The notes under the pieces are model-generated. The model saw only the letters and a program-made list of their open reading frames with translations, was not told where the DNA came from and searched no databases. A stretch of DNA of 64,000 nt from an uncultured Clostridia bacterium (GTDB lineage Bacteria > Bacillota > Clostridia > Christensenellales > UBA1242): assembly GCA_934757855.1 (NCBI GenBank), contig CAKVLR010000002.1, forward strand, positions 361,397 through 425,396, in the 5' to 3' direction. How positions within the stretch are numbered: the first letter of the stretch is position 1; each line of letters starts with the position of its first letter. Of the stretch, positions 1 to 63,131 are shown one piece after another. A program made the position numbers and the translations under genes.

Positions 1-123
1 GAGTTTTTTGCGATTTTTACTAAGTATTATGCAATGTTTTCCATATTTTATGTAAGGAATATGTTATCAAACTATATTTTGCTGTAATGATTATGTTTTG
101 TATTCAATTATATAATTTTGTTG

Positions 124-139
124 TGTTTCACGTGAAACA
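124..139. promoter_or_regulatory. parS: parS (ParB/Spo0J binding site), perfect TGTTTCACGTGAAACA
   Basis: Exact 16-bp palindrome matching the Firmicutes parS consensus TGTTNCACGTGAAACA. Confidence 0.8.
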
Positions 140-215
140 TTAAATTATATAAGCGTTTCACTGTCTTATGCAATCGTTATAATATTAAAAGCGGCTTAAA
201 TATGTCTTATATAAA

Positions 216-230
216 TGTTCCACATGAACA
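216..230. promoter_or_regulatory. degenerate parS-like palindrome TGTTCCACATGAACA
   Basis: 15-nt palindrome related to parS but one base short and with central changes. Confidence 0.25.
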
Positions 231-295
231 TTTATACTGTTATGTAATAGTATTTAATTATGGTTGCATCGAAAACAGATAAACTCATATGCAAA

Positions 296-311
296 TATTT
301 CATGTGAAACA
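296..311. promoter_or_regulatory. parS-like site, 2 mismatches (TATTTCATGTGAAACA)
   Basis: 14/16 match to parS consensus. Confidence 0.4.
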
Positions 312-621
312 ACATCTTTAAACAACCTGCATTACTTTTATTGTGTGATTGTTTTGTGATTATTTTTAACAAATATTACTATTATACTTACTTTTACTGA
401 TTTTGTATTTTATATATAAATTTTTATTGCATTTAGTATTAGGTTTAAGGTGTTTAAAAATGTTAATTTTCTTTGTAAAAACATTCAATAATGTTTGTTT
501 TTGTAGTTGCTTTTTATAATAGACTTAAAAACGCATCGTTTTTTTGTTTATTGTTAAGAAATTATAATTTATTTAGTTTAACTTTTAATATAACTTATTG
601 CATAATACATTTTGTAAAAAA

Positions 622-637
622 TGTTTCATGTGAAACA
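622..637. promoter_or_regulatory. parS: parS-like site, 1 mismatch (TGTTTCATGTGAAACA)
   Basis: 15/16 match to parS consensus. Confidence 0.6.
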
Positions 638-1008
638 AAATATTGAATTATCGTTGTATTATTCAATCTCTATTGCTGTTTGACTGTTGTTATTTACTAA
701 ATTTATTTCAAATGACATATAATGAAAGCATTTTGTAAAAAGTATATTATAAAATTAAAATTACGCTTTATATTAATAAATAATTAATAAAAAACGATAA
801 AATGATTATGTGGTAATACATTATTTAATTTTTAATTTTATATATTATTATTAAACAATATATTTATATGCTAATCTTATCTTAATTCAAAAATTAAATG
901 CGTTTATATAAATATAGTTCGTTGCTATCAGTGCAATTTTGTTTGTTTTTAATTAAACTTTTAATTAAAATCGTGTTAATATGTATATAAATTAAAAACA
1001 AGACGCAA

Positions 1009-1024
1009 TGTTTCACGTGAAACA
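1009..1024. promoter_or_regulatory. parS: parS, perfect TGTTTCACGTGAAACA
   Basis: Exact 16-bp consensus, 20 bp downstream of the rsmG stop. Confidence 0.8.
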
Positions 1025-1043
1025 AAAACAGGCTATTTGCCTG

Positions 1044-1760
1044 CTATAATGGTTTTGTTTTAATTAAATTTTTAGGTCGCGGGTATTTTGATGGCGTTTT
1101 ATCATCTTTTTTAATGTAAATTATATTTCTTTCAAATATTTCATTGTTTAAACTTAAATTATATTTTTCTATTGAAATAATGCTAGAATTGAGTGTTTTT
1201 AATGCATTTTTTGCATTATGTAATTCATTTTCACAGTTTAACGATTTTAATGCTACGAACTCCCCGCCTGTTTTGGTATATGGTATGCAGTATTCAGCGA
1301 GTATGTTTAATGGAGCGACTGCTCTTGCTATTGTGTAATCAAATGTTTCACGTGAAACATTGTGTTCTTGTAACTCCTGGGCTCTTGAATGAATTGTTGT
1401 TATATTTTTGAGTTTTAACAGGGAAATAACAGTATTTAGAAAGTTTATTCGTTTATTAAGACTGTCAACTAGTGTAAAATTTAAATCAGGTCGCATTATT
1501 TTTAACGGTATGGCTGGAAACCCTGCTCCAGTACCTATATCGCAAATAGTTGAGTTTTGTATAAAGTATTTATAGTTCAAAACACTGTCTATAAAATGTT
1601 TTACAACAACTTCACTAAAATCGGTGATTGCTGTTAAGTTTAAAACTTTATTTGTTTCTATGAGTATTGCATAGTACTGCAAAAACTGCTCAATTTGCTC
1701 ATTTTTTAATAAAATTTCGTGTTTTTTAAATAAATCTATTAAAATTTCTCTATTTTCCAT
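1044..1760 (-). CDS. rsmG: 16S rRNA (guanine527-N7)-methyltransferase RsmG (GidB)
   Basis: 238 aa; SAM-binding motif DIGTGAGFPAIPLKI; lies downstream of and overlaps mnmG as in the conserved mnmE-mnmG-rsmG cluster. Confidence 0.92.
   Translation of the reverse strand: MENREILIDLFKKHEILLKNEQIEQFLQYYAILIETNKVLNLTAITDFSEVVVKHFIDSVLNYKYFIQNSTICDIGTGAGFPAIPLKIMRPDLNFTLVDSLNKRINFLNTVISLLKLKNITTIHSRAQELQEHNVSRETFDYTIARAVAPLNILAEYCIPYTKTGGEFVALKSLNCENELHNAKNALKTLNSSIISIEKYNLSLNNEIFERNIIYIKKDDKTPSKYPRPKNLIKTKPL
1344..1359. promoter_or_regulatory. parS: parS, perfect, embedded in rsmG coding sequence
   Basis: Exact 16-bp consensus; encodes ..NVSRETF.. within rsmG. Confidence 0.8.
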
Positions 1761-3633
1761 TGCTACTCCTATTTTTATATCTTTTTAGATAAATAGTCAA
1801 AATACTAATATCTGCTGGCGATACGCCACTGATTCTGCTTGCTTGTGCTAGATTTTGTGGTTGTACGCGCGCTAATTTCTGTTGCGCTTCAATTCGTAAG
1901 CCTTTCAGGGCGCTGTAATCTAAATCTTGCGGTATGAATATATTTTCGTTTTGTTCTTGGCTTTTGATTTGTTCTTGCTGAATATTGATATAACCCTCGT
2001 ATTTGGCTAAAATGTTTAATTGTTGCAATATTTCTTGTGAAAGGTCATCAAAAAAGTGAAATTTTGCGTTAAAATCGAAAATATCAATACTGTTTCGCTT
2101 TAAAAGTGAGCGAATGGTAATCCCACTTTTTATTGCTGGTTCGCCGTGCGATTTTAAATATTCTTGCAATTGTTGACTTGGCGATAAGACTTTGTTTAAT
2201 ATCTCCTCGCCTTTTTTAATGTCGCGTTCTTTCTTTAAAACTTTGAGATAATTTTTTCGTGTTACCAAACCAGCTTGGTATCCTAATTTGGATAATCGAA
2301 TATCGGCATTATCTTGCCTGAGTAGTAAGCGGTATTCTGCTCGTGAGGTCATCATTCTATATGGCTCGTTTGTGCCTTTTGTGACTAAATCATCGACCAA
2401 AACGCCTATATATGCATCATTTCGCTTTAAAATAAGTGGTTTTTTGCCTCTAACATACAAACTTGCATTTAAACCAGCCAAAATCCCTTGCGCTCCCGCC
2501 TCCTCGTAACCACTAGTGCCGTTTACTTGTCCAGCGAAAAATAATCCTGCAAGGCGCTTGTATTGTAGTGTAGCATCTAGGTCTGTTGAGTCAATGCAAT
2601 CGTATTCAATGGCATATGCATATCGCATTAAGTGCGCATTTTCTAAGCCTTTTATACTGTGAATAAAATCTAATTGCGAATGATACGGTAAACTGCTTGA
2701 AAGACCTTGTACATATATTTCATTGGTACTCATCGCCTCTGGTTCTAAGAAAAACTGGTGTCTATTTTTGTCTGCAAATCGTACAATTTTATCTTCGATT
2801 GAAGGACAATATCTTGGGCCTACCCCCTTAATTACTCCTTGATAGAGGGGGCTGTATTTTAGATTGGCGCGTATAATCTCGTGAGTGCGCTCGTTTGTGT
2901 AGCCCATATAGCAACTTGTTATGTTTTTTGGTAAGCGCCTAGTATTTTTGCTAAATGGCGGTAAATTCTCCTCGCCTTTTTGCTCCTCTAGCGCATCAAA
3001 ATTTATTGTGCGCCTATCCACTCTCATCGGCGTGCCTGTCTTAAAGCGTAAAATTTTTAAACCTAACCTTTGCAAACTCGCTGTAAGTTTGGTCGCGTTG
3101 GTAAATCCATTCGGTCCACTATTCCTTATATAATTGCCTGTAAGCGTACGGCTGTTTAAATAAACGCCAGTGCAAACCACTACCGCTTTTGCGTGGAACC
3201 TCTCACCCATTCCTGTTTCGATTCCCCAAAGTTTTCCTTGCTTGGTGATTATTTTGGTAACTTCACCCTGTAAAATCGTCAAATTTGGTTGATTTTCAAG
3301 AGTTGATTTCATAATCTCGTGATAACGAACTTTATCAACCTGAACGCGCAGTGAATGAACGGCTGGACCTTTTGAGCTATTTAACATTCGCTTATGCAAA
3401 GTCGCTTGGTCGGCTGTATGCCCCATTTCCCCGCCTAAGGCGTCAATTTCAAAAACCAAATGCCCTTTTGCTGTCCCGCCTATGCTTGGATTGCAAGGTA
3501 AAAAACCGATTCCATCTAGGTTGAGAGTTGTAATCAAAGTGTTTAGCCCCGTCCTAGCGCACGCCAAACTTGCCTCACAACCAGCGTGTCCCGCACCGAT
3601 GACTATCACATCATATTCTTTGTAATTTTTCAT
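1750..3633 (-). CDS. mnmG: tRNA uridine 5-carboxymethylaminomethyl modification enzyme MnmG (GidA)
   Basis: 627 aa; N-terminal FAD motif VIVIGAGHAGCEA; GidA-typical length and C-terminal domain. Confidence 0.97.
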   Translation of the reverse strand: MKNYKEYDVIVIGAGHAGCEASLACARTGLNTLITTLNLDGIGFLPCNPSIGGTAKGHLVFEIDALGGEMGHTADQATLHKRMLNSSKGPAVHSLRVQVDKVRYHEIMKSTLENQPNLTILQGEVTKIITKQGKLWGIETGMGERFHAKAVVVCTGVYLNSRTLTGNYIRNSGPNGFTNATKLTASLQRLGLKILRFKTGTPMRVDRRTINFDALEEQKGEENLPPFSKNTRRLPKNITSCYMGYTNERTHEIIRANLKYSPLYQGVIKGVGPRYCPSIEDKIVRFADKNRHQFFLEPEAMSTNEIYVQGLSSSLPYHSQLDFIHSIKGLENAHLMRYAYAIEYDCIDSTDLDATLQYKRLAGLFFAGQVNGTSGYEEAGAQGILAGLNASLYVRGKKPLILKRNDAYIGVLVDDLVTKGTNEPYRMMTSRAEYRLLLRQDNADIRLSKLGYQAGLVTRKNYLKVLKKERDIKKGEEILNKVLSPSQQLQEYLKSHGEPAIKSGITIRSLLKRNSIDIFDFNAKFHFFDDLSQEILQQLNILAKYEGYINIQQEQIKSQEQNENIFIPQDLDYSALKGLRIEAQQKLARVQPQNLAQASRISGVSPADISILTIYLKRYKNRSSNGK

Positions 3634-4665: not shown

Positions 4666-5985
4666 TTGATAGTTTTTAAAAATGGAGGAGTTTATGTACA
4701 AAAACAAAGAAGAAGCCCGCAGGGGGGGGGGCGCTTTAATAGCTCTAAAACAACTTGTATTTCAAGGAATAAAAAGGCATTTCTAATTGGGTTAATTTGT
4801 GCAAGTTTTGCCTTAATTTTAGGTGCAAGTTTACTTATTTTGAAGATTTTACCAAAGTTGAATGGGGTCGAAGAGCCTGGAAGGAGTTATACATTAACTA
4901 TTTCTCCTAGTGAAGGTGGTTATGCTATGTATATAAGAAACGGTGGTACTGCCTCAAAAGTAACCAGTAGTATTTATGCAAATGGTTGGGAAAATGAATC
5001 TACAACTTCTCTAACGGCGTATCCTAATTCTGGTTATCAATTTGTGAAGTGGGTATATAAGAACACAACATACACAACTGCATCTATCTATTATAATGGT
5101 GGCGGTATAAGTTTATATTTTGAAAAGACTGCTTTAATTGTGACAACTATTTCTAACGACTCCACGCAAGGCGGTGTTTCTGGAACGGGTGAGGTTACAA
5201 AAGGTCAATCTACCACAATCACTGCAACTCCAAATCGAGGGTATGCTTTTGATTGCTGGAAAAATAGTAACGGTGAGGTGATATCAACTAAGGCAAGTTA
5301 TACATTTACGCCGACTGAGGATATAACTTTAACGGCATATTTTAAGGTTGCGTATGTCACTATTCACAAAGGTGATGCTACCATTAGCGATTTTATTCAA
5401 GTTTATGATGATACAAATTTAACTCTAAAAATAGTAATTTCACCAAACGCAGGCGAGTATGTCAGTGAAATTTCTTTTGATAATTCGGTATTTTATGCGA
5501 TTGAAAGTTGGAAAGCCGAACTCTATGGCGCGTGTGCTGATGCTCTCAGTGTGACTTATTCGGTGACTAGTGGAACAAATAAATTTGGTATGTTTTTTGA
5601 TTATGTGTATGCAACGCCGAGTATAGATATTTATGTTCGTACGACAAATCAAGCCTATACCTCACTAAAAAAGCCAACTGCGGGTGGGGTGAGTAGCGTT
5701 GCGGTAACGGCTACATTAGGCGGAACGGTTACACTAGTGGGTGATGATTATGAAAGTTTAACTGAAAGCGATACAATCATTTGCTCGGCAACTCCTTGTA
5801 TGCAAGGCTACACATTTGCTGGGTGGTATTTGTCTGGTGATATGGCAAAACCTATCTCAACAAGCCTAAGTGTGCGCCTCGCAAAATCAACAATTTATGG
5901 GCAAGAATTAATCGCAAAATTTGAAAAAATCTCAACTTCAAACAACATAAATAGCGAAACCAACAACACAACTGATATACTATAA
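4666..5985 (+). CDS. membrane-anchored surface protein with Listeria-Bacteroides (Flg_new) repeats; likely phase-variable
   Basis: Repeat signatures GYQFVKW, GYAFDCW..TLTAYF and GYTFAGWY. TM helix LIGLICASFALILGASLLIL. The ORF-track TTG start (4666) has no SD. The SD GGAGG (4684-4688) plus ATG 4694 is out of frame with the gene body because of the G10 tract. Confidence 0.8.
   Translation: MIVFKNGGVYVQKQRRSPQGGGRFNSSKTTCISRNKKAFLIGLICASFALILGASLLILKILPKLNGVEEPGRSYTLTISPSEGGYAMYIRNGGTASKVTSSIYANGWENESTTSLTAYPNSGYQFVKWVYKNTTYTTASIYYNGGGISLYFEKTALIVTTISNDSTQGGVSGTGEVTKGQSTTITATPNRGYAFDCWKNSNGEVISTKASYTFTPTEDITLTAYFKVAYVTIHKGDATISDFIQVYDDTNLTLKIVISPNAGEYVSEISFDNSVFYAIESWKAELYGACADALSVTYSVTSGTNKFGMFFDYVYATPSIDIYVRTTNQAYTSLKKPTAGGVSSVAVTATLGGTVTLVGDDYESLTESDTIICSATPCMQGYTFAGWYLSGDMAKPISTSLSVRLAKSTIYGQELIAKFEKISTSNNINSETNNTTDIL
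4722..4731 (+). repeat. homopolymeric G10 tract between the SD/ATG and the gene body (slipped-strand switch candidate)
   Basis: 10 consecutive G counted directly, in an otherwise AT-rich genome. Confidence 0.9.
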
Positions 5986-6173
5986 TCAATAGCACAAATA
6001 CTCTAATTATGTGGAAATATTGTGAACTGAATATGTGTGTTTATACAGTAATAACACAAACAAGATTTTACACCATATTATGCTAAAATACTCGCAAATA
6101 AAACTATCCAAATTTTGCAAAAAATTATCTAAAAAAATATACTAAAAAATACAAGAAAAATAATCTAAAAAAG

Positions 6174-6374
6174 TTTTCCACTTTTTCTCAAACAAAACAT
6201 TCGTTTTAAACAAATGTTTTAGTAATTTAAAAAGTGCTTAACTAAGCCATATTTTAAAGTTATCCACATTAAAAAGTTGCTTTAATCAAGTGACTTTTTA
6301 ATTTTTTATACCAAAATGTGGAAAAAACTTGGAGTTTTCCACAAGTTATCCACATATTTTTCCACTTATCCACA
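6174..6374. promoter_or_regulatory. DnaA-box cluster
   Basis: Perfect TTATCCACA at 6260, 6346 and 6366. TTTTCCACA at 6335 and, on the reverse strand, at 6317-6325. Weaker TTTTCCACT at 6174 and 6358. A very AT-rich stretch follows at 6450-6520. Confidence 0.7.
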
Positions 6375-6541
6375 TTTTTAGATTTATTAAATCAAGAATA
6401 ATTATATAAAAAAATATCTAAAAAATTTTGAAAAAATATGTCGAAAATGTTTTGTTTTATATAATAATATATGATACAATATATATGTAAATTAATAATA
6501 TTTTTCGGGCAATTTGGCATAATAAAATAGAGGTATAAAAA

Positions 6542-9500
6542 ATGAACAAAAGTTTACAAATGGTAAGTTGGTTTACTGGGGTGATTTTGGGAATAGTTGT
6601 TTTGCTTTTTGGCGGATTAAATCTCACACAAAATCGCAAGGCAGTGCTAGGCTATCCGCAGTACACGACTTTTTGGCTCGATAGCGCGGTAAAATATATC
6701 GAGTCGGAGCAATCTGCTGGCACTAAACAATATCCATATTTAATCAACACACCTGAGCAGTTGGCGTACATTGCAAAGGCTGTGAACGGCGGTACGGTTG
6801 ATAATGATGGAAATGTGCAGTATCTTGATTTTAGCGGGGTATTTTTCCAACTCAACGCCGATATTGATTTGAGCGGGAGTAACTGGGTGCCTATTGGAAA
6901 CGAGGCGCACCCATTTAAAGGTGTATTTTATGGCAATGGTAAAAAAATCTCAAATATGGTGATTGACTCAACTATGATGAACGCGACCGCTGGCGGAGTT
7001 GTTGTGAATGATTTTAGACAAAGCCTAGGATTGTTTGGTTATGTTGGGTACAACGGGAGTGCTGGAGAAACTGCTTCCACAATCAATCAGTTGGTTATTG
7101 AAAATGCATACATAAACGCTTGCGAATACGCGCAATATGCGGGTACAGTTGCGGGGGTATTTGAGGGCGCAAGTTTAAATAATATCACTATCATTAGCCC
7201 TACGAGTGAAACTTCAAACGACACGACTAGCGCGGGCGCCGTGATTTATCACAATTTGACCGACGCAAGTGTAATGAGTGCGGACTTTATCGCGGGCGGT
7301 GTGGTAGGAAAGTTGGGTAACTCGACTAGCACAACCGTTGCAAACCTTAGCAATGCGAACCACGATAACGAAATTTTGACTTCTATAAAATCAACTATTT
7401 ACGACAACAACGGCTATTCAGTCGTTTTGGGTGGTTTAGTCGGTGAAAATAATGGTACTCTCAAAGAAAGTCGCCGTACTGGTGGCGAGATAAACGCGTT
7501 TATCGGTACAATCGGTGGTTTGGTCGGTGTAAATAGTGCTAGCGGGAAAATGCTAGACTGCTACAACTACGGAAACATTTTGATTGACCCACTTTTGCCA
7601 AACGGTGTGAGCGTAGATAGTGGCTTAAACAAGGCAGAAGAAACGGTCATCGGTGGTATGGCTGGTAAAAACTTTGGTAGCATTTCTATCGAGAATTTTA
7701 GTGCAATTTACGGTACTGTCGAAGGGCAAAATGTTGCGCAAGTATTCCAAACTTGCCGAGGACTAATCGGTGGTATCGCGGGAACAAGTAAAGGAACGAT
7801 TGAAAATATCACAAATTTTGCATTTGTAAAATGTACGGGCGACCAAGTGCAATATATGGGTGGTATTACCGCAATTAATGCGGGTACAATTCGTAAATGT
7901 GTAAATAAAGGCATCGTTGGTGCGGACGGAAATACTGAATTTTCAGCAAAGGCAGTCGGCGGTATCACTGGGCTAAATGATAGTGCATCAATAGGTGATG
8001 GCGCAGAGCAGTTGGGCGATGGTAAGATTTATGGTGTAGAAAACAAGGCTGACACTGGTATCAATATTAATGCGGAAAATGCGGGCGGTATCGCGGGTAT
8101 CAATGCAAGTACTGGAAATATTACCTCTTATGAGGCTGGCGTGGTGGCTGGTGTAGTGCGAAATTTAGGAAATGTGCAAGGCACATCTGCCGTTGGTGGT
8201 ATCGTTGGTAAAAATTACGGTACAGTGGAATATGTTTACAATACAACAAATATTAGTTGCGCAAGCAATGCGGACTCGGCTAGCGTGGGGGGCGTAGTTG
8301 GAATTATGAGCAAAGGCGCAATCAAAAATAGTTTCAATGTAGGACAAGTGCTTGATGGATATAATGTTGGTGGTTTTGTAGGCACAATGGAAAATAGAAC
8401 GGCAAGAATCGAAAATTGTATCAATTACGGAAGCGTAACAGGTAGCAGAGGATATGTTGGCGGTTTTGCTGGATATATCGAAGCGGGCGCGCTTAGCAAG
8501 GTAATCGCTATTTGTGATGTGACTGAAAACGGTGACTCGCCTTTGGGTATCGGTGGTGTAATCGGTGCGGTAAAATTAAGCAATGGTGCGCCTGATACAG
8601 GAGTTACGCTAGAAAACTATTTCTATTCGGAAAGCATTGCAAACTACGAAGAAGATGAATTTGGCGTAACTGATAACGGAATGATAGCAATCGGTAATAC
8701 TGACATCAACAAATGGGCAAAAATGGACAGTTACAAGATGACTTTGCCATATGTAGAAAGCAAAATGACTGGTAGTGACAGATACCGTAGCGGTTTGTAT
8801 AAGGCTGGTTCTACGGGTGCTGAAATTGAAAACACTGACTGGTACTTTAACACAGCAAATGAAACGGCAAATACATATTATTATCCTATTTTGCGTGCGT
8901 TTAGGGCTGGGGAAACAAATTCACTCAATGTCTATGGCGCAACGGCAGATGCGGTGAAACCTGAAAACGGACTCGAATACCCAAGCGAAACGATTTTTAG
9001 AGTAGAATTTAGAAACAATTATCCATACTGGAATGTAAACGCCAAAGATTACGAAGAACGCGTAATTTGTGAAGATAGATATGTAGTAAACGGACATTAT
9101 ACGGCTGAGCCAAACTCAGACCTTTACGATAAGCCAGCAGGCTTTTATATGCAATGGAAACAGACCGATATTGATATGACTACTGCTCCACAAAATTGGA
9201 GTTTTACAAATAAAGTTACTAGAAATATGCGCATATACATTGATTGGACCGAAAAAACTTATACAATTAAATATTACTTGCAACTAAATGGTGTAGGTGA
9301 ATTTGTAGAGATGACCGCGGAAGAAAGAGAGCAATTTGGACTGAGCGATTCTTCAACATATAGCCTTGACCCTAACGCAAAATCAAGTCTAAATGCGATT
9401 AATATACCTGAGCCAAAATTGTTTGGTTATTCTTTTGATGGCTGGTGGATAAGCAAGACCGCAAGCGGAATAGGTGCTACTCTTGATGAGACGGACAAAG

Positions 9501-11167
9501 TGACCGAATTTTCACGCAACGAAGTTTATGCAGAAGATATTATATATGTATATGGTAAAAAGACTGCTGAAACATACACTGTTTACCTTTACCCAGGCGT
9601 AAACAACTCAAATATTGCTATGAAATTTGTTGATGCACAAGAGGGTACGCCAAAAGTTGTGACCCTTACATATGGTGAGGCTTTTGATTTGAGCGACATT
9701 CAAGCGCAACTCGATTATGACCCAGCAGACATAACATTTAAAGGTTGGTTTAGTAACGAGGGGACGGGCGGTACACAATACACAAATACAAATTCAGTTA
9801 GTATTGGTGTGTTTAAACTAACTGGCACGGGCGCAATTCGTTGGTACGCGCAATGGACTGATTCAATGCAAAAAATCTTGTTTGTAAGTATTGATGAAAA
9901 CGGAACTGAGCAAAATTTAGGCTCAACTTCGGTGCCTTTTGGAAATATATTCACTTACGAACAATTTGTAAGCCAAAACCTCAAATATTATGTGATAGAT
10001 GAGCGCGGTGGTTATGAAATTGACAGGTGCTTTGCAGATGCAAGTTTGCTTACCTTGTTTGATTTTAATAATAACTCAATTACTGATAGAACGACAATTT
10101 ACATTACTTGGAAAAAGAAATTTTTTAGCCTTAGGCTTAACGCCGATGGTGGCGCGTTTAGTGATGATTCGACCGTTTATGTGATTAATAATATCGAATA
10201 CAAGAGTGACTTTTTGGGCGAAGTGCTAAACAATCTTGCCGATACGCAAATGCCAGCGCGCATAGGTTATAAGGTAAAGAGAGTGAATGATATTGCAATT
10301 TGGAACGAACAGCCAAACGGGCAAGGCGCGGTGATTTCTTACGCGAACAACAACTACATTATGCCTGCATATGACCTAAATATCTACATTTCTTGGGAAG
10401 TGGAAAAATACACTGTGCAGATTGTAGCAAATGGCGGTTTGTTTACGACCGAAAATGGCAGTACGCCTTCAATTAATATTGCGCTCGAATACAATACTTC
10501 ATTGAAACAAGCGCTTGACCGCTACTTTGTGGCTAATGCATTGCCTACAAACGAGGGGTACGGTTTTAGGTATTGGAGTTTGCAAAACGCAGGTATTGAT
10601 GACACGCCAGCACCAGCCTTGACCGATAGCGACAAAGTGCCATATCTTGGTACAACCGTTTATGCAACTTGGGGCAGACAATATATCGTTAAATTTAAAA
10701 AGATATTCTACGATGATGAAACATCTTGGCTAGAAATCAAAGTATTTGAAGGGGATTGTGTTAGCGAACCAGACACTTCTTCCACAGACTTTATGGTAGC
10801 GGGTATGGACTTTGTAGAATGGAAACAATATATGGGTACAATCACAAATGAAAATGGCGAAAAAGAACAAGTTTATCAAGCATATGATTGGCTCGAGCCT
10901 GTCACTAGCGACTTAATTTTAGTAGGTACTTGGACACCAAACGGTGGCAAAACGGACCCTATCGACACAAGCAATATCTTGATTATCGCAATTTCAATAA
11001 TCGCTGGTATTGTGGTGATTATGTTTGTGGTTATTTTGGCGCGTAGCCGTAAAAAAGGACTAGAAGTTTCGAATAAACGCCTACAAACCAAAAATAGCAA
11101 GGAAAAATTAGAAAAAATACGCGAAATTGAAAAACGCCGTAAAAATGACAACCCATTCGATTTCTAA
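6542..11167 (+). CDS. giant surface protein (1541 aa): N-terminal signal anchor, GLUG-type glycine-rich beta-helix repeats, Listeria-Bacteroides repeats, C-terminal TM plus basic tail
   Basis: Repeated GG(I/L/V)(A/V)G..N motifs. Later GYSFDGWW, FKGWFS and GYGFRYWS repeats. C-terminus IIAISIIAGIVVIMFVVILARSRKK. No LPXTG motif. Confidence 0.85.
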   Translation: MNKSLQMVSWFTGVILGIVVLLFGGLNLTQNRKAVLGYPQYTTFWLDSAVKYIESEQSAGTKQYPYLINTPEQLAYIAKAVNGGTVDNDGNVQYLDFSGVFFQLNADIDLSGSNWVPIGNEAHPFKGVFYGNGKKISNMVIDSTMMNATAGGVVVNDFRQSLGLFGYVGYNGSAGETASTINQLVIENAYINACEYAQYAGTVAGVFEGASLNNITIISPTSETSNDTTSAGAVIYHNLTDASVMSADFIAGGVVGKLGNSTSTTVANLSNANHDNEILTSIKSTIYDNNGYSVVLGGLVGENNGTLKESRRTGGEINAFIGTIGGLVGVNSASGKMLDCYNYGNILIDPLLPNGVSVDSGLNKAEETVIGGMAGKNFGSISIENFSAIYGTVEGQNVAQVFQTCRGLIGGIAGTSKGTIENITNFAFVKCTGDQVQYMGGITAINAGTIRKCVNKGIVGADGNTEFSAKAVGGITGLNDSASIGDGAEQLGDGKIYGVENKADTGININAENAGGIAGINASTGNITSYEAGVVAGVVRNLGNVQGTSAVGGIVGKNYGTVEYVYNTTNISCASNADSASVGGVVGIMSKGAIKNSFNVGQVLDGYNVGGFVGTMENRTARIENCINYGSVTGSRGYVGGFAGYIEAGALSKVIAICDVTENGDSPLGIGGVIGAVKLSNGAPDTGVTLENYFYSESIANYEEDEFGVTDNGMIAIGNTDINKWAKMDSYKMTLPYVESKMTGSDRYRSGLYKAGSTGAEIENTDWYFNTANETANTYYYPILRAFRAGETNSLNVYGATADAVKPENGLEYPSETIFRVEFRNNYPYWNVNAKDYEERVICEDRYVVNGHYTAEPNSDLYDKPAGFYMQWKQTDIDMTTAPQNWSFTNKVTRNMRIYIDWTEKTYTIKYYLQLNGVGEFVEMTAEEREQFGLSDSSTYSLDPNAKSSLNAINIPEPKLFGYSFDGWWISKTASGIGATLDETDKVTEFSRNEVYAEDIIYVYGKKTAETYTVYLYPGVNNSNIAMKFVDAQEGTPKVVTLTYGEAFDLSDIQAQLDYDPADITFKGWFSNEGTGGTQYTNTNSVSIGVFKLTGTGAIRWYAQWTDSMQKILFVSIDENGTEQNLGSTSVPFGNIFTYEQFVSQNLKYYVIDERGGYEIDRCFADASLLTLFDFNNNSITDRTTIYITWKKKFFSLRLNADGGAFSDDSTVYVINNIEYKSDFLGEVLNNLADTQMPARIGYKVKRVNDIAIWNEQPNGQGAVISYANNNYIMPAYDLNIYISWEVEKYTVQIVANGGLFTTENGSTPSINIALEYNTSLKQALDRYFVANALPTNEGYGFRYWSLQNAGIDDTPAPALTDSDKVPYLGTTVYATWGRQYIVKFKKIFYDDETSWLEIKVFEGDCVSEPDTSSTDFMVAGMDFVEWKQYMGTITNENGEKEQVYQAYDWLEPVTSDLILVGTWTPNGGKTDPIDTSNILIIAISIIAGIVVIMFVVILARSRKKGLEVSNKRLQTKNSKEKLEKIREIEKRRKNDNPFDF

Positions 11168-50584: not shown

Positions 50585-50667
50585 GCGATTGTGGCGGAAT
50601 TGGCAGACGCGCTAGGTTCAGGTCTTAGTGGGAAACCGTGAAGGTTCAAATCCTTTCAATCGCACCA
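50585..50667 (+). tRNA. tRNA-Leu (anticodon CAG)
   Basis: Acceptor GCGATTG/CAATCGC, anticodon loop UUCAGGU, long variable arm, encoded CCA. Confidence 0.9.
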
Positions 50668-50690
50668 AAAGACCCCTTGCGGGTCTTTTT
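50668..50690 (+). terminator. rho-independent terminator
   Basis: GACCC-CTTGC-GGGTC followed by TTTTT. Confidence 0.8.
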
Positions 50691-50778
50691 GATTGAAAGG
50701 ATTTGAGAGAGCGTGCGCTCTCGCACTGCTCTAAAAGCAGTGAACCTTCACTTTCGTGAACGGACGCTCGCTGTTCTT
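50691..50778. other. tRNA-Leu-associated structured element, copy E2
   Basis: 16/16 nt (50691-50706) and 9/9 nt (50743-50751) are the reverse complement of the adjacent tRNA T-arm and 3' acceptor region. A 36-nt two-hairpin insert splits them. Homologous to 20353-20443. Confidence 0.7.
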
Positions 50779-50784
50779 AAAAAA

Positions 50785-50970
50785 CGATATTGACCTAGCG
50801 GTCAATGATATTACTCACTATCGTTCGTAGTGATATTATTTACTAGCGTAAATAATGATATGATATTTGCCTTCACTGCAAACAAAGTTTGCAATATCAC
50901 TCGCTAAGCGAATATCATTGCGGAGCAATATCACTCACGCAGTGAATATCACTGAGCCGTAGGCTCAATT
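50785..50970. repeat. array of eight different short hairpins separated by GATAT (x5), then ATATC (x4), linker words
   Basis: GATAT at 50786, 50807, 50832, 50857 and 50862. ATATC at 50894, 50912, 50928 and 50946. Hairpins at 50791-50804, 50815-50833, 50838-50853, 50877-50893, 50901-50911, 50917-50929, 50931-50945 and 50953-50967. Confidence 0.8.
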
Positions 50971-50974
50971 TCAT

Positions 50975-51019
50975 TGTAAACAAAAGGAAAAGCCTCATAG
51001 GCTTTCCTTTTTTGTTTAC
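50975..51019. terminator. long hairpin with flanking A/T tracts (bidirectional terminator type)
   Basis: GTAAACAAAAGGAAAAGCC-TCAT-AGGCTTTCCTTTTTTGTTTAC. Confidence 0.7.
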
Positions 51020-51090
51020 TGAGGGACTCACGCCGTTACGCTAACCAGCCTGTTATTCTATTAGCATCGTACGGACAGCGCTTCACTATC

Positions 51091-51160
51091 GTGCCGAGGT
51101 GCTAAAAACTTGCCACTGGCAATTTTTTCAAACGCACCTGTTCGAGTCCGACGACTATCG
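51091..51160 (+). other. inverted tRNA-Leu(CAA)-derived fragment (tRNA-like, not a functional tRNA)
   Basis: GTGCCGAG (the tRNA 5' end) and TGTTCGAGTCCG (a T-arm-like sequence) flank an unrelated hairpin AGGTGC..TTGCCAGTGGCAA..GCACCT. There is no matching acceptor 3' strand. Confidence 0.35.
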
Positions 51161-51161
51161 T

Positions 51162-51196
51162 AAAACAAAAACAAGACCGTTCTATTAGTCTTGTTT
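51162..51196 (-). terminator. terminator of tRNA-Leu(CAA)
   Basis: On the minus strand: ACAAGAC-loop-GTCTTGT followed by TTTTGTTTT. Confidence 0.7.
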
Positions 51197-51201
51197 AGTA
51201 C

Positions 51202-51288
51202 TGGTGCCGAGAGAGGGACTCGAACCCTCATGGGATTGCTCCCGGCAGATTTTGAGTCTACTGCGTCTGCCAATTTCGCCATCTCGGC
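51202..51288 (-). tRNA. tRNA-Leu (anticodon CAA)
   Basis: Acceptor GCCGAGA/TCTCGGC, anticodon loop CUCAAAA, long variable arm, T-arm GAGGGTTCGAGTCCCTC, encoded CCA. Confidence 0.9.
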
Positions 51289-57491: not shown

Positions 57492-60400
57492 ATGGCAAAA
57501 GAAAAAGAGAAATTAAAGCATACTAATTATAGCATTGGACTGGATATTGGTACAAATTCAGTTGGTTGGGCTGTTGTAGATGAAAATATGAATTTGGTTA
57601 AGCGTTGTAAAAAGCACTTATGGGGTAGTCGCTTGTTTGATGAGCGCGAAACAGCAAAAAATAGGCGTATATTTCGTACTACGCGCAGAAGGTTATTGCG
57701 TAGGCGTATTCGTATCGCAATACTAAATAAATTGCTACAAGATTTTGTTGGCGACCAAAACTTTTTTGTTAGAATGGAAGAAAGTTTTTTGCAGAAAAAC
57801 GACCGCACTTTGCAAAATAAATACACACTTTTTGATGAAGAAAGTTCTTGCGACATAAAATCAAGTGATGGCAAAATTTTATATACCATAACAAAAGATG
57901 ATGATTTTTATAAATTATTTCCTACAATTTATCACTTGCGCAAAAGCATTATTGAGCATCAAGATTGGATATTTGCTCCAAAACTGGTTTATTTAGCGAT
58001 TCACCATATCTTAAAGAGTCGTGGTAACTTTATCAATGAAAGTTTGGACTCAAAAAATAGCGATGATAAAAATACCGATGAGGACCAAGAACAAGAGATA
58101 GATATAAATAAATTATTTGTTAAAATTTTGCAAGATGCTTGTGATATATATGATGTGGAATTAGAAAATATTGATGAATTTAGCGAATATAAATGGATTA
58201 GAAATCTAAGTGCACAATCGCAGGTATTTTTTGAAGTTTTGCAAAATAATGATTTAAGCAAAGAAGCAAAAATTGCGCAAATAAAACAAAAATTTAATTG
58301 TGGAAAAGATGATACAGAAATTGAATCGCTCCTAAAATTGTTACTTGGCGATTTGGCGGATATCAACAAGATATTTAAGAGTGATACCAAAGAGAAATTT
58401 AAAGTGAAATTTTCAGAGGACAATATTGATGAAAAAATATTAGCAAGTGGTGAATATTCACAATTTTTAGAAAATGCTAAAAACTTGTATTCCTTGGTAG
58501 AGTATCAGCGAATTATGCAAGGCAAAAATTATCTTTCTGATGTAATGATAGAGCGATACAATCGTTACAAACAACAATTAAAAGACTTAAAAACTGTATT
58601 TTTAGCGATTTATCCAAAACAAAATGGCAAAATGCACCCAGAATATCGCAAGTTTTTCCGTGATTTAAAAACTGTTGATGGTTATGCTTGATATACATAT
58701 TCCGTTAATTCTTGTGATGAGAAAAAATTTAAAAGTACTATTATAGGGGCAATAAAAAATAATGAGCAAAAAATAATTAGTGCGGGCATTTGTGCGGAAG
58801 ACAACCAAAGTATTGCGGAAAAAGCGAAAAAAATCTTAATTTGTCTTGGAGAGTATTCGGCAAAAGATGGAAAAGAACAACTTTATGTTGGTATAGACTT
58901 TACAGACAAAGATTTTAGGACAGAGAGTGATAGGCAAAAGCAACAAGAGTTAGGCTTTTTACAGCGCCCTCGCGTGGCTGGTAATGGTATTTTCCCAAAA
59001 CAAGCACACCAAAAAGAATTAGATATAATTCTTAAAAATCAATCAGTATATTGGGGCAATTTTTTAAACAAAAAAACTGATTTCTCAAACAACACAATTC
59101 AAGAAGATATCAAAAAATTATTCAATTTTAAAATTGACTACTATGTTGGACCATTGGGTATCAGCAAAAATGGAACAAACAATTTTGGCTGGGTGGTACG
59201 CAAAGAAGGTTTTAGTGAAATAACTCCTTTTAATTATTACGATGCTGTTGATTTTGAGAAAACTCGTAAAAATTTTATTGAGAGAATGTCTGGCAACTGC
59301 TCATATATTTTGAATAAAAAAGCGTTACCTAAAAACTCAATGTATTACTGCTATTTTAATGTACTAAATGAATTATGCAATATTAGTATTTTGATAAAAG
59401 ACAAATTAATGAAATTGCACGAGATTTCACTAAATGGAAAAAATTGCTTTGATATTATTATTGATAAATTGCTCGAGAAAAATACCTTTAAACAAAAAGA
59501 TTTATTGCATATGCTGACAGAAGAATATGATGATGTGTCTATAAGAGGTTTTTCAAATGGCGAAAAGTTAAATTCTAATTTAAAATCAATTCGCGATATG
59601 GCTAGAATATTTGAGGATAGAAAATTAAATCATTGTGAAATTATGGAATTTCTAGGCAGTGAAAAAGCAAGTATGTATGAAGATGTAATTCGTGATGTTA
59701 CTATTTTCGGCGAAAGCAAAAAAGCACTAAAAGAATCTTTGAGTAAATATCATTTGAAGGAAGATGAAAAAGAGAGAGAGAAACAAATAAACGCCATTTG
59801 TGAGTTAAATTATTCTGGTTGGGGTAATTTGAGCAAAAAATTAATTTTTGGCATTGAATCTGAGAGTAGCGGGAACAAAATTCTAAAATTAATGGAAAGC
59901 GAACATAGAAACTTTATGTCTATTTATATGGACAAGCGATACGGCTTTGATGAGCAAGTAAAAAAACTAAACGAAGTAGATAAACCTAATGTCCTTGAGC
60001 AAATTAACTCGCTTGTTTGCTCTCCTAGCGTAAAAAGAGGGGTTAACCAAGCGTATAAAATTGTGGAGGAACTAGTACAAGTTATGGGACACGCTCCGCA
60101 AAATGTATTTTTAGAGTTCGCGCGTGGTGGAGATTCTAAGAAAAAAGGTAGTGTTATTCCAAACAGACAAAAACAAATTGACAAAAAATATAAAGATGCA
60201 AAAGCATTAAAAGATGGCTTATATGAAAAATATATAAATGCTGACGGTAAATTAAATGAAAATATAAGCCTTTTATCACAAAACGATAAAGAAAATGATA
60301 AATTAAAGAATAAATTTGATAATGAAAAAGTAGTACTATATTTCTTGCAAATGGGTAGATGTATGTACAGTAATGAGATATTAGACTTAAATCATATTAG

Positions 60401-62255
60401 CGAATATGAAGTGGACCACATCGTGCCTCAGTCGATTATAGATGATAATAGTTTTGATAATAAAGTTTTGGTTAAGGTGAAAAGAAATCAACAAAAATCC
60501 AATGGAATTTTAGAGATAAAAGACTCAGAAGTAACGAAATTATGGAAAGAGTTGCGTAAAATGGGGTTGTTGACAGTTGAAAAATATGATAGATTGCTCA
60601 AATTGCAGAATGGCACTCTGCTTGATAATACTGCTGGTTTTGTTGCTAGACAATTAGTGGAAACTAGGCAAATTATAAAAAATACCGCAGAAATTTTAAA
60701 AGACTACTTCAAAGAATATAATGCTAAATCTGCTCAAATTAATGCAGAAAATCAAGCATTTGAAACTTCGGTTTATCCTGTAAAGGCTGAGATGAATAGT
60801 ATTTTTAGACAAAAATTTGGTTATCCAAAGGGCGAAGGTGGCAGGGCTATCAATGACTTTCACCACGCAAAAGATGCCTATATCACAACGGTTATGGGGA
60901 CTTATATGCTAAATCATTGGCATTTAGATGACCCTAAAATGTGGTTTGTAGCAAGGAGTAAAAAGAATGAAGATGACCCTAAATTTGAATGTTCATTTTA
61001 TCAAAACTATATCGAAGATATAAAAGCGGAACAAGACACGCTAAACCCGCAAAATACAAATAAAAGCGGTGTGATTGTTGGTTCGATGAAGAAATATCAA
61101 GACAAAAATTGGTGTGGTAGCAAATGCGAAACTCATACAAACATTACTATTAAAGATGTGCTTAATAATTTTGACCGTAACTACTACTCCGCAGATTGTT
61201 ATTATTCAAGAAAAATTGATTCAAAACCAACAGGTGCTTTTTACGACCAAACCATTTACAAAAGCGACAAGAATAAAGAAAAGTTTGGGAAAACGCGCAA
61301 TCATGAGGGTATTGCGAGTATTTCTTTGGGAAAAATCAAAAAACCAATTATGCCATATGGTGAGAAGGTAGTGCAAAAAATCAATAGAATAGACTTAGAT
61401 GTGAGTAAATATGGTGGCTATTCTTCAACTAAATATGCATATTTTATGCTAATTGAGTACAAAGATGAAAAGGGTAAAGTAATTCAGGAAATAATTGGTT
61501 GTCCATACTACATATTAAAACAATCATCGAATGATATTGAATTAGTGAATAACATAAAAAATAATTTAATAATAAAAAACCAACAAGAATATACTAATTT
61601 TAAAATTTTAAATAAACGATTACCTAAAAAAAGTGTTTTGCAAACTAATTTGTATTCAAAAGTTTCGTTAGATCGGTCTGAACAATTCAAGATTATAAAT
61701 CGCTTCAGTATCCCACGAAATAATAAAGAATTATATCATTTTATTTATTTAATTTTTAAGTATACTAAGAGCAAAGATGAATATGAGGGTAATAGAAAGA
61801 TTACAATAAATTATATTGATTATAATGCATGGCTAAAAGAAAAACAGTATCCGTTAGGTGTGAATATAGATTTAGAGAATTATATAAATGAGAATTTTGC
61901 TAATTTTTATAAGATTTTTCTTGAATATGTTAAGTCAAAACATAGACATAAGACTTCTATAATTAATATTGAAAAAGCATATGCTAAGATTTGTAATGAA
62001 ACTGATTTAGATGCGATATATCACGATACCAATACAAAAACCATACTTGAAAAGAAATTATTATTTATTGTAGGGTTATTAAATATTTCAAAGGGAGAGG
62101 CAGATTTTACATTGTTTGATTTAGCAAAAAATTGTGGACTTATTAGGATTACACAGGAAGTGGACTGGTATAACACTTACATTATTCACAATTCCATAAC
62201 TGGTATTTATTGCACAAAAGAAAAAATAATAAAAAATACACAAGAAAATAGGTAA
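57492..62255 (+). CDS. cas9: Cas9 (type II-A), 1587-codon frame interrupted by one in-frame TGA at 58689-58691 (possible pseudogene or read-through)
   Basis: RuvC-I YSIGLDIGTNSVGWAVV; Arg-rich bridge helix RRIFRTTRRRLLRRRIRI; RuvC-II VFLEFARG; HNH YEVDHIVPQS..N; RuvC-III NDFHHAKDAY. ORF-track pieces 57492-58691 and 58974-62255 are in the same frame, and 58692-58973 is open. Confidence 0.93.
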
Positions 62256-62258
62256 AAT

Positions 62259-63131
62259 ATGAGTTTTAGGACTGTTTTAATTACTCAAAAATCAAAGTTA
62301 TCATACAAAGATAACTTTTTGGTTATTCAAGGTAAAACAACAAATATGGTGCATTTAAGCGAAATTCATACTATTATTGTTGAATCTACAATGGTGCAAA
62401 TATCGGCATATCTTTTAGCTCAATTATCTGCAAACAAAATCAAATTGATTGTTTGCGATGAACGCCACAACCCTACAGCAGAAATGGTACCATATTATGC
62501 AAATTACAATACATCAAAAAGATTTTTAAATCAGGTCAAATGGAATGAGGAAAGTAAAAAAGCCCTTTGGACAAAAATAGTATCAAATAAAATACTAAAT
62601 CAGGCAAGAATTTTAAAAAATTTTGGAATAGAAAGACACAAAATGTTGCTAGGATATTTGAGTGAGGTAGAATTAAACGATGAAACAAATAGAGAGGGAC
62701 ATTCTGCAAAAGTCTATTTTAATAGTTTGTTTGGTATGGATTTTTCGCGGGACAAGGTTTGTGATATAAATATGGCATTAGATTACGGATATACTATTAT
62801 TTTATCTGCGTTTAATCGTACTATATCTAGTTTGGGTTATGCAAACCAATTAGGAATTAAACATAAAAATGAGTACAATTTCTTTAACCTAGGTTGCGAC
62901 CTTATGGAGCCGTTTCGAGTGGTTATAGATGAATTTGTGTATGAAAATCGTGAGCGAATGTTTGATTCTTCATACAAACAAGATTTGGTGCAGTTGTTAA
63001 ATAAGAATATTAATTATTGTGGCAAAAATATGATTTTAACCAATGCAATAAATATATTTGTGCTAAACGCGTTGCGCGCAATTGATGAAAATAGAATAGC
63101 GGAGTATGAAGCATATGAGTACGGAGTATAG
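62259..63131 (+). CDS. cas1: Cas1 (type II)
   Basis: Strong similarity by eye to S. pyogenes Cas1: SKLSYK.N.L, NREGHSAKVYFNSLFG.DFSRD, LDYGYT, EPFR. Confidence 0.95.
   Translation: MSFRTVLITQKSKLSYKDNFLVIQGKTTNMVHLSEIHTIIVESTMVQISAYLLAQLSANKIKLIVCDERHNPTAEMVPYYANYNTSKRFLNQVKWNEESKKALWTKIVSNKILNQARILKNFGIERHKMLLGYLSEVELNDETNREGHSAKVYFNSLFGMDFSRDKVCDINMALDYGYTIILSAFNRTISSLGYANQLGIKHKNEYNFFNLGCDLMEPFRVVIDEFVYENRERMFDSSYKQDLVQLLNKNINYCGKNMILTNAINIFVLNALRAIDENRIAEYEAYEYGV

Follow-up and report, generated by a model that had tools for sequence, protein, structure and literature searches.

A probable chromosomal centromere with five parS sites upstream of parAB in an uncultured Clostridia bacterium

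Introduction

Does a gene-free, AT-rich stretch next to rsmG in an uncultured Clostridia bacterium hold the chromosomal centromere, and what has become of the partition genes expected beside it? The question is raised by a DNA segment of 64,000 nucleotides (assembly GCA_934757855.1, contig CAKVLR010000002.1, positions 361,397 to 425,396), hereafter the window, which carries several copies of the 16-bp palindrome TGTTTCACGTGAAACA close to its left end. The original prediction, made from the letters of the window, held that these copies are parS sites, the centromere sequences of the ParABS partition system, and that they are packed at very high density into a region without open reading frames (ORFs) that takes the place of noc, parA and parB. 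Most species with a ParABS system have more than one parS near the replication origin (oriC), one usually being sufficient, and the reasons for the variation in number and for the clustering are open (PMC7022226; PMC7333895). Here we report that the locus, with five parS sites over 1.25 kb, is very probably the chromosomal centromere of this Christensenellales-like Clostridia bacterium, and that parA and parB are present just outside the window.

Materials and Methods

An exact-protein look-up of RsmG identified a 134.9-kb metagenomic contig, L001, that is identical to the window across their entire overlap of 11,760 bp. The contiguous DNA scanned amounts to 73 kb, namely the 64-kb window and the 9 kb past its left edge in L001. 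Positions beyond that edge are given in L001 coordinates or as negative window positions. The parS scan used the 16-mer TGTTTCACGTGAAACA with up to three mismatches allowed, and the counts were compared with those in 100 shuffles. Relatives were obtained by scanning one genome per species with ParB, which yielded 15 loci, mostly from uncultured Clostridia and from metagenome-assembled genomes named 'Christensenella sp.'; where single loci have to be told apart, they are designated by L numbers.

Results

Five parS sites are clustered within 1.25 kb

The scan recovered five matches in the 64-kb window against an expectation of 0.64, and the shuffled sequences contained at most three, none of the 100 reaching five (Table 1). 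The three perfect copies predicted at 124, 1009 and 1344, the last of them inside rsmG, were confirmed at these positions, as were the one-mismatch copy at 622 and the two-mismatch copy at 296; no sixth match was found in the window or in the 9 kb past its left edge. Measured against the universal parS consensus TGTTNCACGTGAAACA, as quoted in PMC2346475, three of the copies are perfect, one has one mismatch and one has two. The degenerate palindrome noted at 216 is also present and corresponds to a parS sequence short of one base in the right arm, probably a decayed site. Of the 16 GTTTCAC half-sites in 73 kb, 9 fall within the cluster. The claim of a very high local density is thus borne out: five sites lie in 1.25 kb and none in the remaining ~72 kb examined. 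Starting in the 3' part of rsmG, the array extends through the spacer between rsmG and parA as far as ~200 bp upstream of the parAB promoter, with irregular distances of 172, 326, 387 and 335 bp between the sites.

Table 1. Features of the parS array and its surroundings (window positions unless marked L001)
Feature	Position	Strand	Remarks
rsmG-parA spacer, window part	1..1043		gene-free
parS site 1	124..139		perfect palindrome TGTTTCACGTGAAACA; nearest to parA
Half-parS GTTTCAC, isolated	155..161	+	
Degenerate parS-like palindrome	216..230		TGTTCCACATGAACA; right arm minus one base; GTTCCAC half-site
parS site 2	296..311		TATTTCATGTGAAACA, two mismatches
parS site 3	622..637		TGTTTCATGTGAAACA, one mismatch, at the central CpG
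parS site 4	1009..1024		perfect; 2 bp past the rsmG terminator hairpin
Intrinsic-terminator-like hairpin and T-run	1027..1045	-	end of rsmG; L001 10716-10734
rsmG (gidB), 16S rRNA methyltransferase G	1044..1760	-	Pfam GidB, E=1e-50
parS site 5	1344..1359		perfect; inside rsmG; encodes V-S-R-E-T
mnmG (gidA), upstream of rsmG	1750..3633	-	part of the conserved mnmG-rsmG-parA-parB-yidC order
parB	L001 12707-13765		just outside the window; 352 amino acids

parA and parB lie just beyond the window edge

Within the window, rsmG, which is transcribed toward the spacer, is followed only by 1043 bp without an ORF of at least 60 amino acids, and this had been taken to mean that noc, parA and parB were lost or displaced and that a gene-free, parS-rich region occupies their position. 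We reject this reading, which has hardly any probability left: in the identical contig L001, parA begins 132 bp outside window position 1, and parB and yidC come after it, so the apparent loss of parAB is an artefact of the window edge. The ORF-free stretch itself is real, but its length of 1043 bp was clipped by the edge and the complete spacer measures 1175 bp. As for noc, it occurs at this spot only in the Bacillales locus L013 and is absent between rsmG and parA in all 10 non-Bacillales loci that include both genes. Past yidC, L001 continues with yidD, rnpA and rpmH on the opposite strand.

The encoded ParA is a Walker-type ATPase of 273 amino acids with a KGGVGKTT motif (AAA_31, E=6e-70), and the end of its gene overlaps the start of parB by 8 bp, stop codon counted. 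ParB has the domains ParB_N (E=8e-35) and HTH_ParB (E=9e-33), while the match to ParB_C is sub-threshold (E=1.7e-4, 21.4 bits versus a Pfam cut-off of 23.8). It also contains the N-terminal ParA-interaction motif LGRGLSSL, the CTP-binding motif GERRFRA and the motif ENLQRED. Among solved structures, its similarity to ParB/Spo0J proteins (7bnk, 1e-51; 1vz0, 6e-49; 6sdk, 9e-49) is greater than that to Noc (1.5e-38). In ParB residues 1-95 (L001 12707-12990), an unusually long Lys/Glu-rich linker of ~80 amino acids joins the ParA-interaction motif to the CTPase domain, which accounts for the total length of 352 amino acids; a typical Spo0J has ~280-290. The consensus match and the canonical parB directly adjacent together uphold the identification of the repeats as parS. 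The expectation that one site would lie inside parB failed, since that gene holds no match with up to three mismatches.

Four residues set the specificity of this protein family, R/x/x/G being found in ParB, which binds parS, and Q/K/K/R in Noc, which binds the Noc-binding site (NBS); in Caulobacter numbering the parS type has R173, no requirement at 179 and 184, and G201 (PMC7383237). The ParB studied here has R, S and N at the first three positions, as expected of a ParB, and A at the fourth, which is neither the Gly of ParB nor the Arg of Noc; as a set, the residues are not of the Noc type. The histidine next to the G201-equivalent position is replaced by Ile or Leu across the clade (alignment columns ~178-186). 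A Noc/NBS nucleoid-occlusion system was rejected as a candidate: the spacer holds neither a noc ORF nor Noc/ParB similarity, and no NBS (ATTTCCCGGGAAAT) with up to two mismatches was found in the 64 kb.

The 16-mer might alternatively be a dispersed repeat, a mobile element, a plasmid or phage centromere, or an operator of an unrelated transcription factor, being a repeated palindrome in non-coding DNA. However, the likeness between its copies stops at ~16-21 bp, no tandem repeats were found in the spacer, and a blastn search of the spacer against plasmid and phage collections gave no match. A generic repeat had been expected to recur at similar density elsewhere, and the other ~72 kb contains no copy. 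Moreover, the same motif flanks parAB in distant Clostridia, and the ParB encoded next to it belongs to the chromosomal Spo0J type, within a conserved mnmG-rsmG synteny. We regard this explanation as having practically no chance of being correct; the extent of the motif, the 73-kb scan and the parAB context effectively refute a generic repeat or mobile element. A plasmid-type centromere array was also discarded, on the irregular spacing, the lack of tandem repeats and the chromosomal par synteny.

parS clusters beside parAB are common in related Clostridia

The gene order mnmG-rsmG-spacer-parA-parB-yidC is kept in the five closest loci that cover the region (L004-L008), whose ParB proteins are 69-78% identical to the one studied here. 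Of the 12 other distinct loci whose sequence covers the relevant flank of parAB, 10 carry a cluster of two to six parS sites, on the upstream side of parA or the downstream side of parB. In locus L006, the spacer holds four sites, a fifth lies inside rsmG and a sixth upstream of that gene; the spacers of L005 and L008 hold two sites each, accompanied by one inside rsmG; and the two Lachnospiraceae loci L014 and L015 each have three perfect sites within ~860 bp of parA. Two sites precede parA in L017, and degenerate copies with two to three mismatches precede it in L004, while L009-L011 carry two to five sites downstream of parB. The Bacillales locus L013 has the order rsmG-noc-parA-parB, with one parS immediately following rsmG and another within parB. 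The unusualness that the original prediction had implied for this cluster did not hold, given how commonly related Clostridia carry two to six parS sites beside parAB and that the arrangement in mycobacteria is comparable.

In an alignment across species, the spacer is conserved only at the rsmG terminator, the parA promoter and Shine-Dalgarno sequence, and the parS motifs, and the latter are not even positionally homologous. The presence of parS in spacers that otherwise cannot be aligned implies that the sites are either kept or formed anew as the DNA around them turns over. In L006 (3104-5058) and in L010 and L011 (6941-7337), nearly all parS copies have TG or CA in place of the central CpG, giving CATGTG or CACATG cores, which suggests either a lineage-wide tolerance at the centre of the palindrome or CpG decay.

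The parS site inside rsmG is found at the same codon offset (398-401 nt) in L001, L004 (position 2678), L005 (3667), L006 (3781) and L008 (4376). At this spot the RsmG peptide varies in the wider family (SDFREQ, TEFRQQ, QKFRAN, QIPFES), whereas the clade bearing the rsmG parS has V-S/P-R/H-E-T, which is what parS encodes in that frame. In L006, the rsmG gene has CAT (His) for CGT (Arg), resulting in a CACATG core, and the five other parS sites of that locus have the same core in three cases and its reverse complement, CATGTG, in two. As the codon change tracks the parS motif of the lineage, the conserved object in rsmG appears, from this sequence comparison, to be the DNA site and not the protein.

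The rsmG-parA spacer is long, AT-rich and free of genes

The absence of any ORF of at least 60 amino acids from window positions 1-1043 was confirmed. The last 132 bp of the spacer, beyond the window start, hold a parA promoter-like element (TTTGCA-18-TATAAT with an extended -10 TG) followed by the Shine-Dalgarno sequence AAAGGAGGA and the parA ATG. The GC content of the spacer is 20-21%, as compared with 26.8% across all intergenic DNA and 36.8% in coding DNA, and is the lowest among gaps of at least 500 bp in the 73 kb. A search of L001 10300-20717 against Rfam gave no match at E≤0.1. Neither regular parS spacing nor helical A-tract phasing was found, and the AA/TT periodicity of 10-11 bp was insignificant in three of four spacers, including this one (the fraction of shuffles reaching the observed value was 0.105). 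The spacer lengths in the relatives are 2190 bp in L004, 1204 bp in L005 and 1093 bp in L006, all at 19-22% GC, and 441 bp in L007 and 491 bp in L008; the L004 spacer has no ORF of at least 50 amino acids. The genome is ~77% coding (non-overlapping ORFs of at least 90 amino acids, 73 kb), a density that is unusual for a free-living Firmicute, and has many intergenic gaps of more than 500 bp, so that long gaps are not exceptional in it.

One explanation for such a spacer is a decayed gene, either noc or a second parB paralogue, with the parS copies as leftovers or secondary acquisitions. The Bacillales locus L013 has noc at the same position, the spacers of 1.1-2.2 kb are gene-sized, and tblastn produced one weak match of 22 amino acids to Noc (E=0.036, opposite strand). 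This match was not reproduced in any relative, however, and tblastn with the Fictibacillus Noc against the spacers of L001, L004, L005, L006 and L014, or with the organism's own ParB against the L001 spacer, gave nothing significant; as a positive control, the same Noc probe finds the real parB at E=2e-46. In addition, the spacers have a GC content well under that of coding DNA and cannot be aligned from one species to another. A pseudogene so old as to be fully eroded is possible, but overall we consider a decayed gene to be very improbable as the origin of this region.

A second explanation, which would add to the centromere function rather than replace it, is that the spacer has been selected as a transcription-free 'landing pad' for ParB, as an autoregulatory region for parAB, or as both. 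Consistent with this, the four closest lineages all keep a long gene-free spacer (1.1-2.2 kb) although there is almost no conservation of its sequence, the spacer is the lowest-GC long gap in the 73 kb, and parS site 1, the nearest perfect copy, precedes the predicted parA -35 element, itself outside the window, by 204 bp. In Pseudomonas aeruginosa, ParB bound at an intergenic parS represses adjacent promoters, whereas in Bacillus subtilis the loss of Spo0J left the expression of parS-adjacent genes unchanged (PMC7022226). Further points on the negative side are the 441-491 bp spacers of L007 and L008, which share the gene order and indicate that spacer length is not essential, the low coding density with several other long gaps in the genome, and the lack of A-tract phasing and of regular parS spacing. 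Selection on the spacer is thus a tentative proposal, and somewhat unlikely on balance.

The array is close to the probable replication origin

Beside rpmH, L001 16113-19418 (window about -4350 to -7660) comprises 3.3 kb without an ORF of at least 100 amino acids and with 97 stop codons in one frame. It contains 14 DnaA boxes in 2 kb, six of them perfect, whose repeated unit is the extended DnaA box AAAAAGTTATCCACA. This region is, judged by its sequence features, the likely oriC; its cluster of DnaA boxes lies 5.8-7.8 kb from the parS array, which places the array about 6-8 kb from the likely origin. The next gene past the region is an unannotated ORF of 238 amino acids on the opposite strand. 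A second, smaller cluster, consisting of three perfect and two one-mismatch boxes in 115 bp, is located in a 21% GC gap at window 6260-6374, directly upstream of a gene for a predicted surface protein of 1541 amino acids. It may serve as a promoter under DnaA control, titrate DnaA or act as an alternative origin module. The parS array is origin-proximal regardless of which of the two is the true origin.

The AT-rich spacer might itself be part of the replication origin, as a DNA-unwinding element or a second oriC module, and not mainly a centromere. It is the most AT-rich region in the neighbourhood, and cumulative GC skew reaches its minimum around window -1000 to +4000. However, the orientation of genes confounds GC skew over such distances, and the DnaA-box clusters are 5.8-7.8 kb away on the rpmH side and 6.2 kb away on the other. 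No DnaA box (TTATCCACA, up to one mismatch) was found in the spacer or within 2 kb of it, or in L001 9474-14651, the interval covering the whole spacer, which indicates that the spacer is not the origin. We find this alternative highly improbable.

Other features of the window

Between mnmE and mnmG, at window 4666-11167, two large genes interrupt what is usually a contiguous origin-region operon; their products are apparently secreted or surface proteins. One encodes 439 amino acids with InlB B-repeat/Flg_new domains, and the other is the above-mentioned gene of 1541 amino acids, a predicted surface protein with no confident Pfam domain. A type II CRISPR-Cas system is located at window 57492-63131, with Cas9 at 58974-62255 (1093 amino acids) and Cas1 at 62259-63131. 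The Cas9 ORF starts within the REC lobe, position 240 of the Pfam model aligning to residue 3, so that the N-terminal part with RuvC-I and the bridge helix is missing from the ORF. An ORF of 399 amino acids without a Pfam match lies 285 bp upstream, and cas9 may be a split or degraded gene or one with a misassigned start. The window contains no CRISPR array. A Gut-1 RNA (RF01706, 54.7 bits) is present at 50907-50976 with tRNA genes on either side (window 50585-51288), consistent with a gut-associated organism.

Discussion

We conclude that the locus is very probably the chromosomal centromere of this bacterium, given what was observed: parS sites that are statistically significant and conserved, canonical ParA and ParB encoded beside them, and a position close to the origin. 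Its presumed mode of action, which we infer from established ParABS biology, would be as follows. ParB dimers bound to cytidine triphosphate (CTP) would load at each parS, close into clamps and slide to the flanking DNA. With loading sites so closely spaced, a single dense partition complex would form over rsmG-parAB-yidC and would probably extend to the oriC region. The Soj-type ParA would act on this complex and thereby segregate the origin region, and the structural maintenance of chromosomes (SMC) condensin would probably be loaded at it. As the array sits so near the parAB promoter, on its upstream side, spreading of ParB may in addition lower parAB transcription.

Several points weigh against the centromere assignment or narrow it. 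The scan spans 73 kb, and further parS sites may be present elsewhere in the genome. The cluster is not universal, since no parS was recognisable within 10-13 kb of parAB in L007 and L016. No dnaA was found beside the putative oriC or anywhere within the 73 kb examined, and DnaA boxes and GC skew are the whole basis of the oriC assignment. Finally, ParB has alanine at the equivalent of Caulobacter G201, which slightly weakens the case for fully standard parS recognition. This glycine was reported to be invariant among ~1,800 natural ParB proteins, and in a mutational scan the small residues C, S and T were tolerated there for parS binding, Ala being unmentioned (PMC7383237). In view of this tolerance of small residues, the alanine is more probably a curiosity than a problem. 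The same residue is found in the two closest long-spacer relatives, L004 and L005, and in the Mogibacterium locus L017, while L006, L007 and L008 have Gly.

A close known parallel is provided by the mycobacteria. In Mycobacterium tuberculosis, in M. bovis BCG and in M. smegmatis, the identical perfect 16-mer TGTTTCACGTGAAACA occurs ~1-2 kb upstream of parB, in the gidB(rsmG)-parA-parB region near oriC, with one parS of M. smegmatis at the 5' end of gidB; no additional parS was reported elsewhere in those chromosomes, and regulation of nearby promoters by ParB was proposed (PMC2346475). The mycobacterial loci differ in having two sites and no long spacer, gidB, parA and parB abutting or overlapping, whereas the locus described here has five sites and two degenerate ones and a gene-free AT-rich rsmG-parA spacer of 1.2 kb.

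In B. subtilis, the parS sites are spread over the origin region, one of them inside spo0J, and noc lies between gidB and soj. Shared with the locus described here are the consensus parS, a ParB of the Spo0J family (6sdk, E=9e-49), the Soj-type ParA and an origin neighbourhood with mnmE, mnmG, rsmG, yidC, rnpA and rpmH. In contrast, all sites detected here lie in the 1.25 kb upstream of parA and none in parB, and there is no noc and, in the window, no NBS. In B. subtilis, 10 parS sequences and their surroundings are bound by Spo0J (PMC7022226).

The parS clusters of P. aeruginosa, Caulobacter crescentus, Corynebacterium glutamicum and Streptomyces extend over several to tens of kb, mostly inside or between ordinary genes. 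The array described here is more compact, at 1.25 kb for five sites, and a dedicated non-coding spacer houses most of it. In these four groups, too, several parS sites near oriC and parAB nucleate one large ParB complex, a single site often being sufficient and the redundancy being thought to add robustness (PMC7022226; PMC4368675; PMC7333895). In P. aeruginosa four sites, parS1-4, are clustered near oriC (PMC7022226).

The array also resembles the plasmid centromeres F sopC, P1 parS and pSM19035 parS, in which dense ParB-binding repeats lie beside the par operon, with possible autoregulation. Plasmid centromere arrays consist of regular tandem or iterated repeats with plasmid-specific motifs, whereas the spacing here is irregular, tandem repeats are lacking, the motif is the chromosomal consensus and plasmid collections gave no match. 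Tight parS clusters beside parAB are thus an already known pattern, and this locus is an ordinary example in a newly sampled lineage that differs from known cases only in degree, with five sites in 1.25 kb situated mostly in a long non-coding spacer.

A more specific proposal would be that the spacer has been expanded into a dedicated, gene-free 'regional centromere' of 1.1-2.2 kb and ~20% GC, in which the sequence changes quickly and parS copies are continually renewed, with one further copy kept within rsmG at the price of a fixed RsmG peptide, alongside a ParB that has a natural Gly-to-Ala change at a reportedly invariant DNA-contact position. We consider this combination rather improbable.

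The practical value of the locus lies in annotation, where it indicates the probable centromere and the origin-proximal region in the genome of an uncultured gut Clostridia bacterium. It leaves the current understanding of ParABS unchanged and contributes a natural example, with comparative data, to the question of parS clustering and variable site number; why parS sites cluster was posed as an open question in a 2020 review (PMC7333895). If the spacer were indeed selected, as a roadblock-free platform for ParB and SMC or as an autoregulatory module, the locus and its relatives would offer a natural system for addressing why parS sites cluster.

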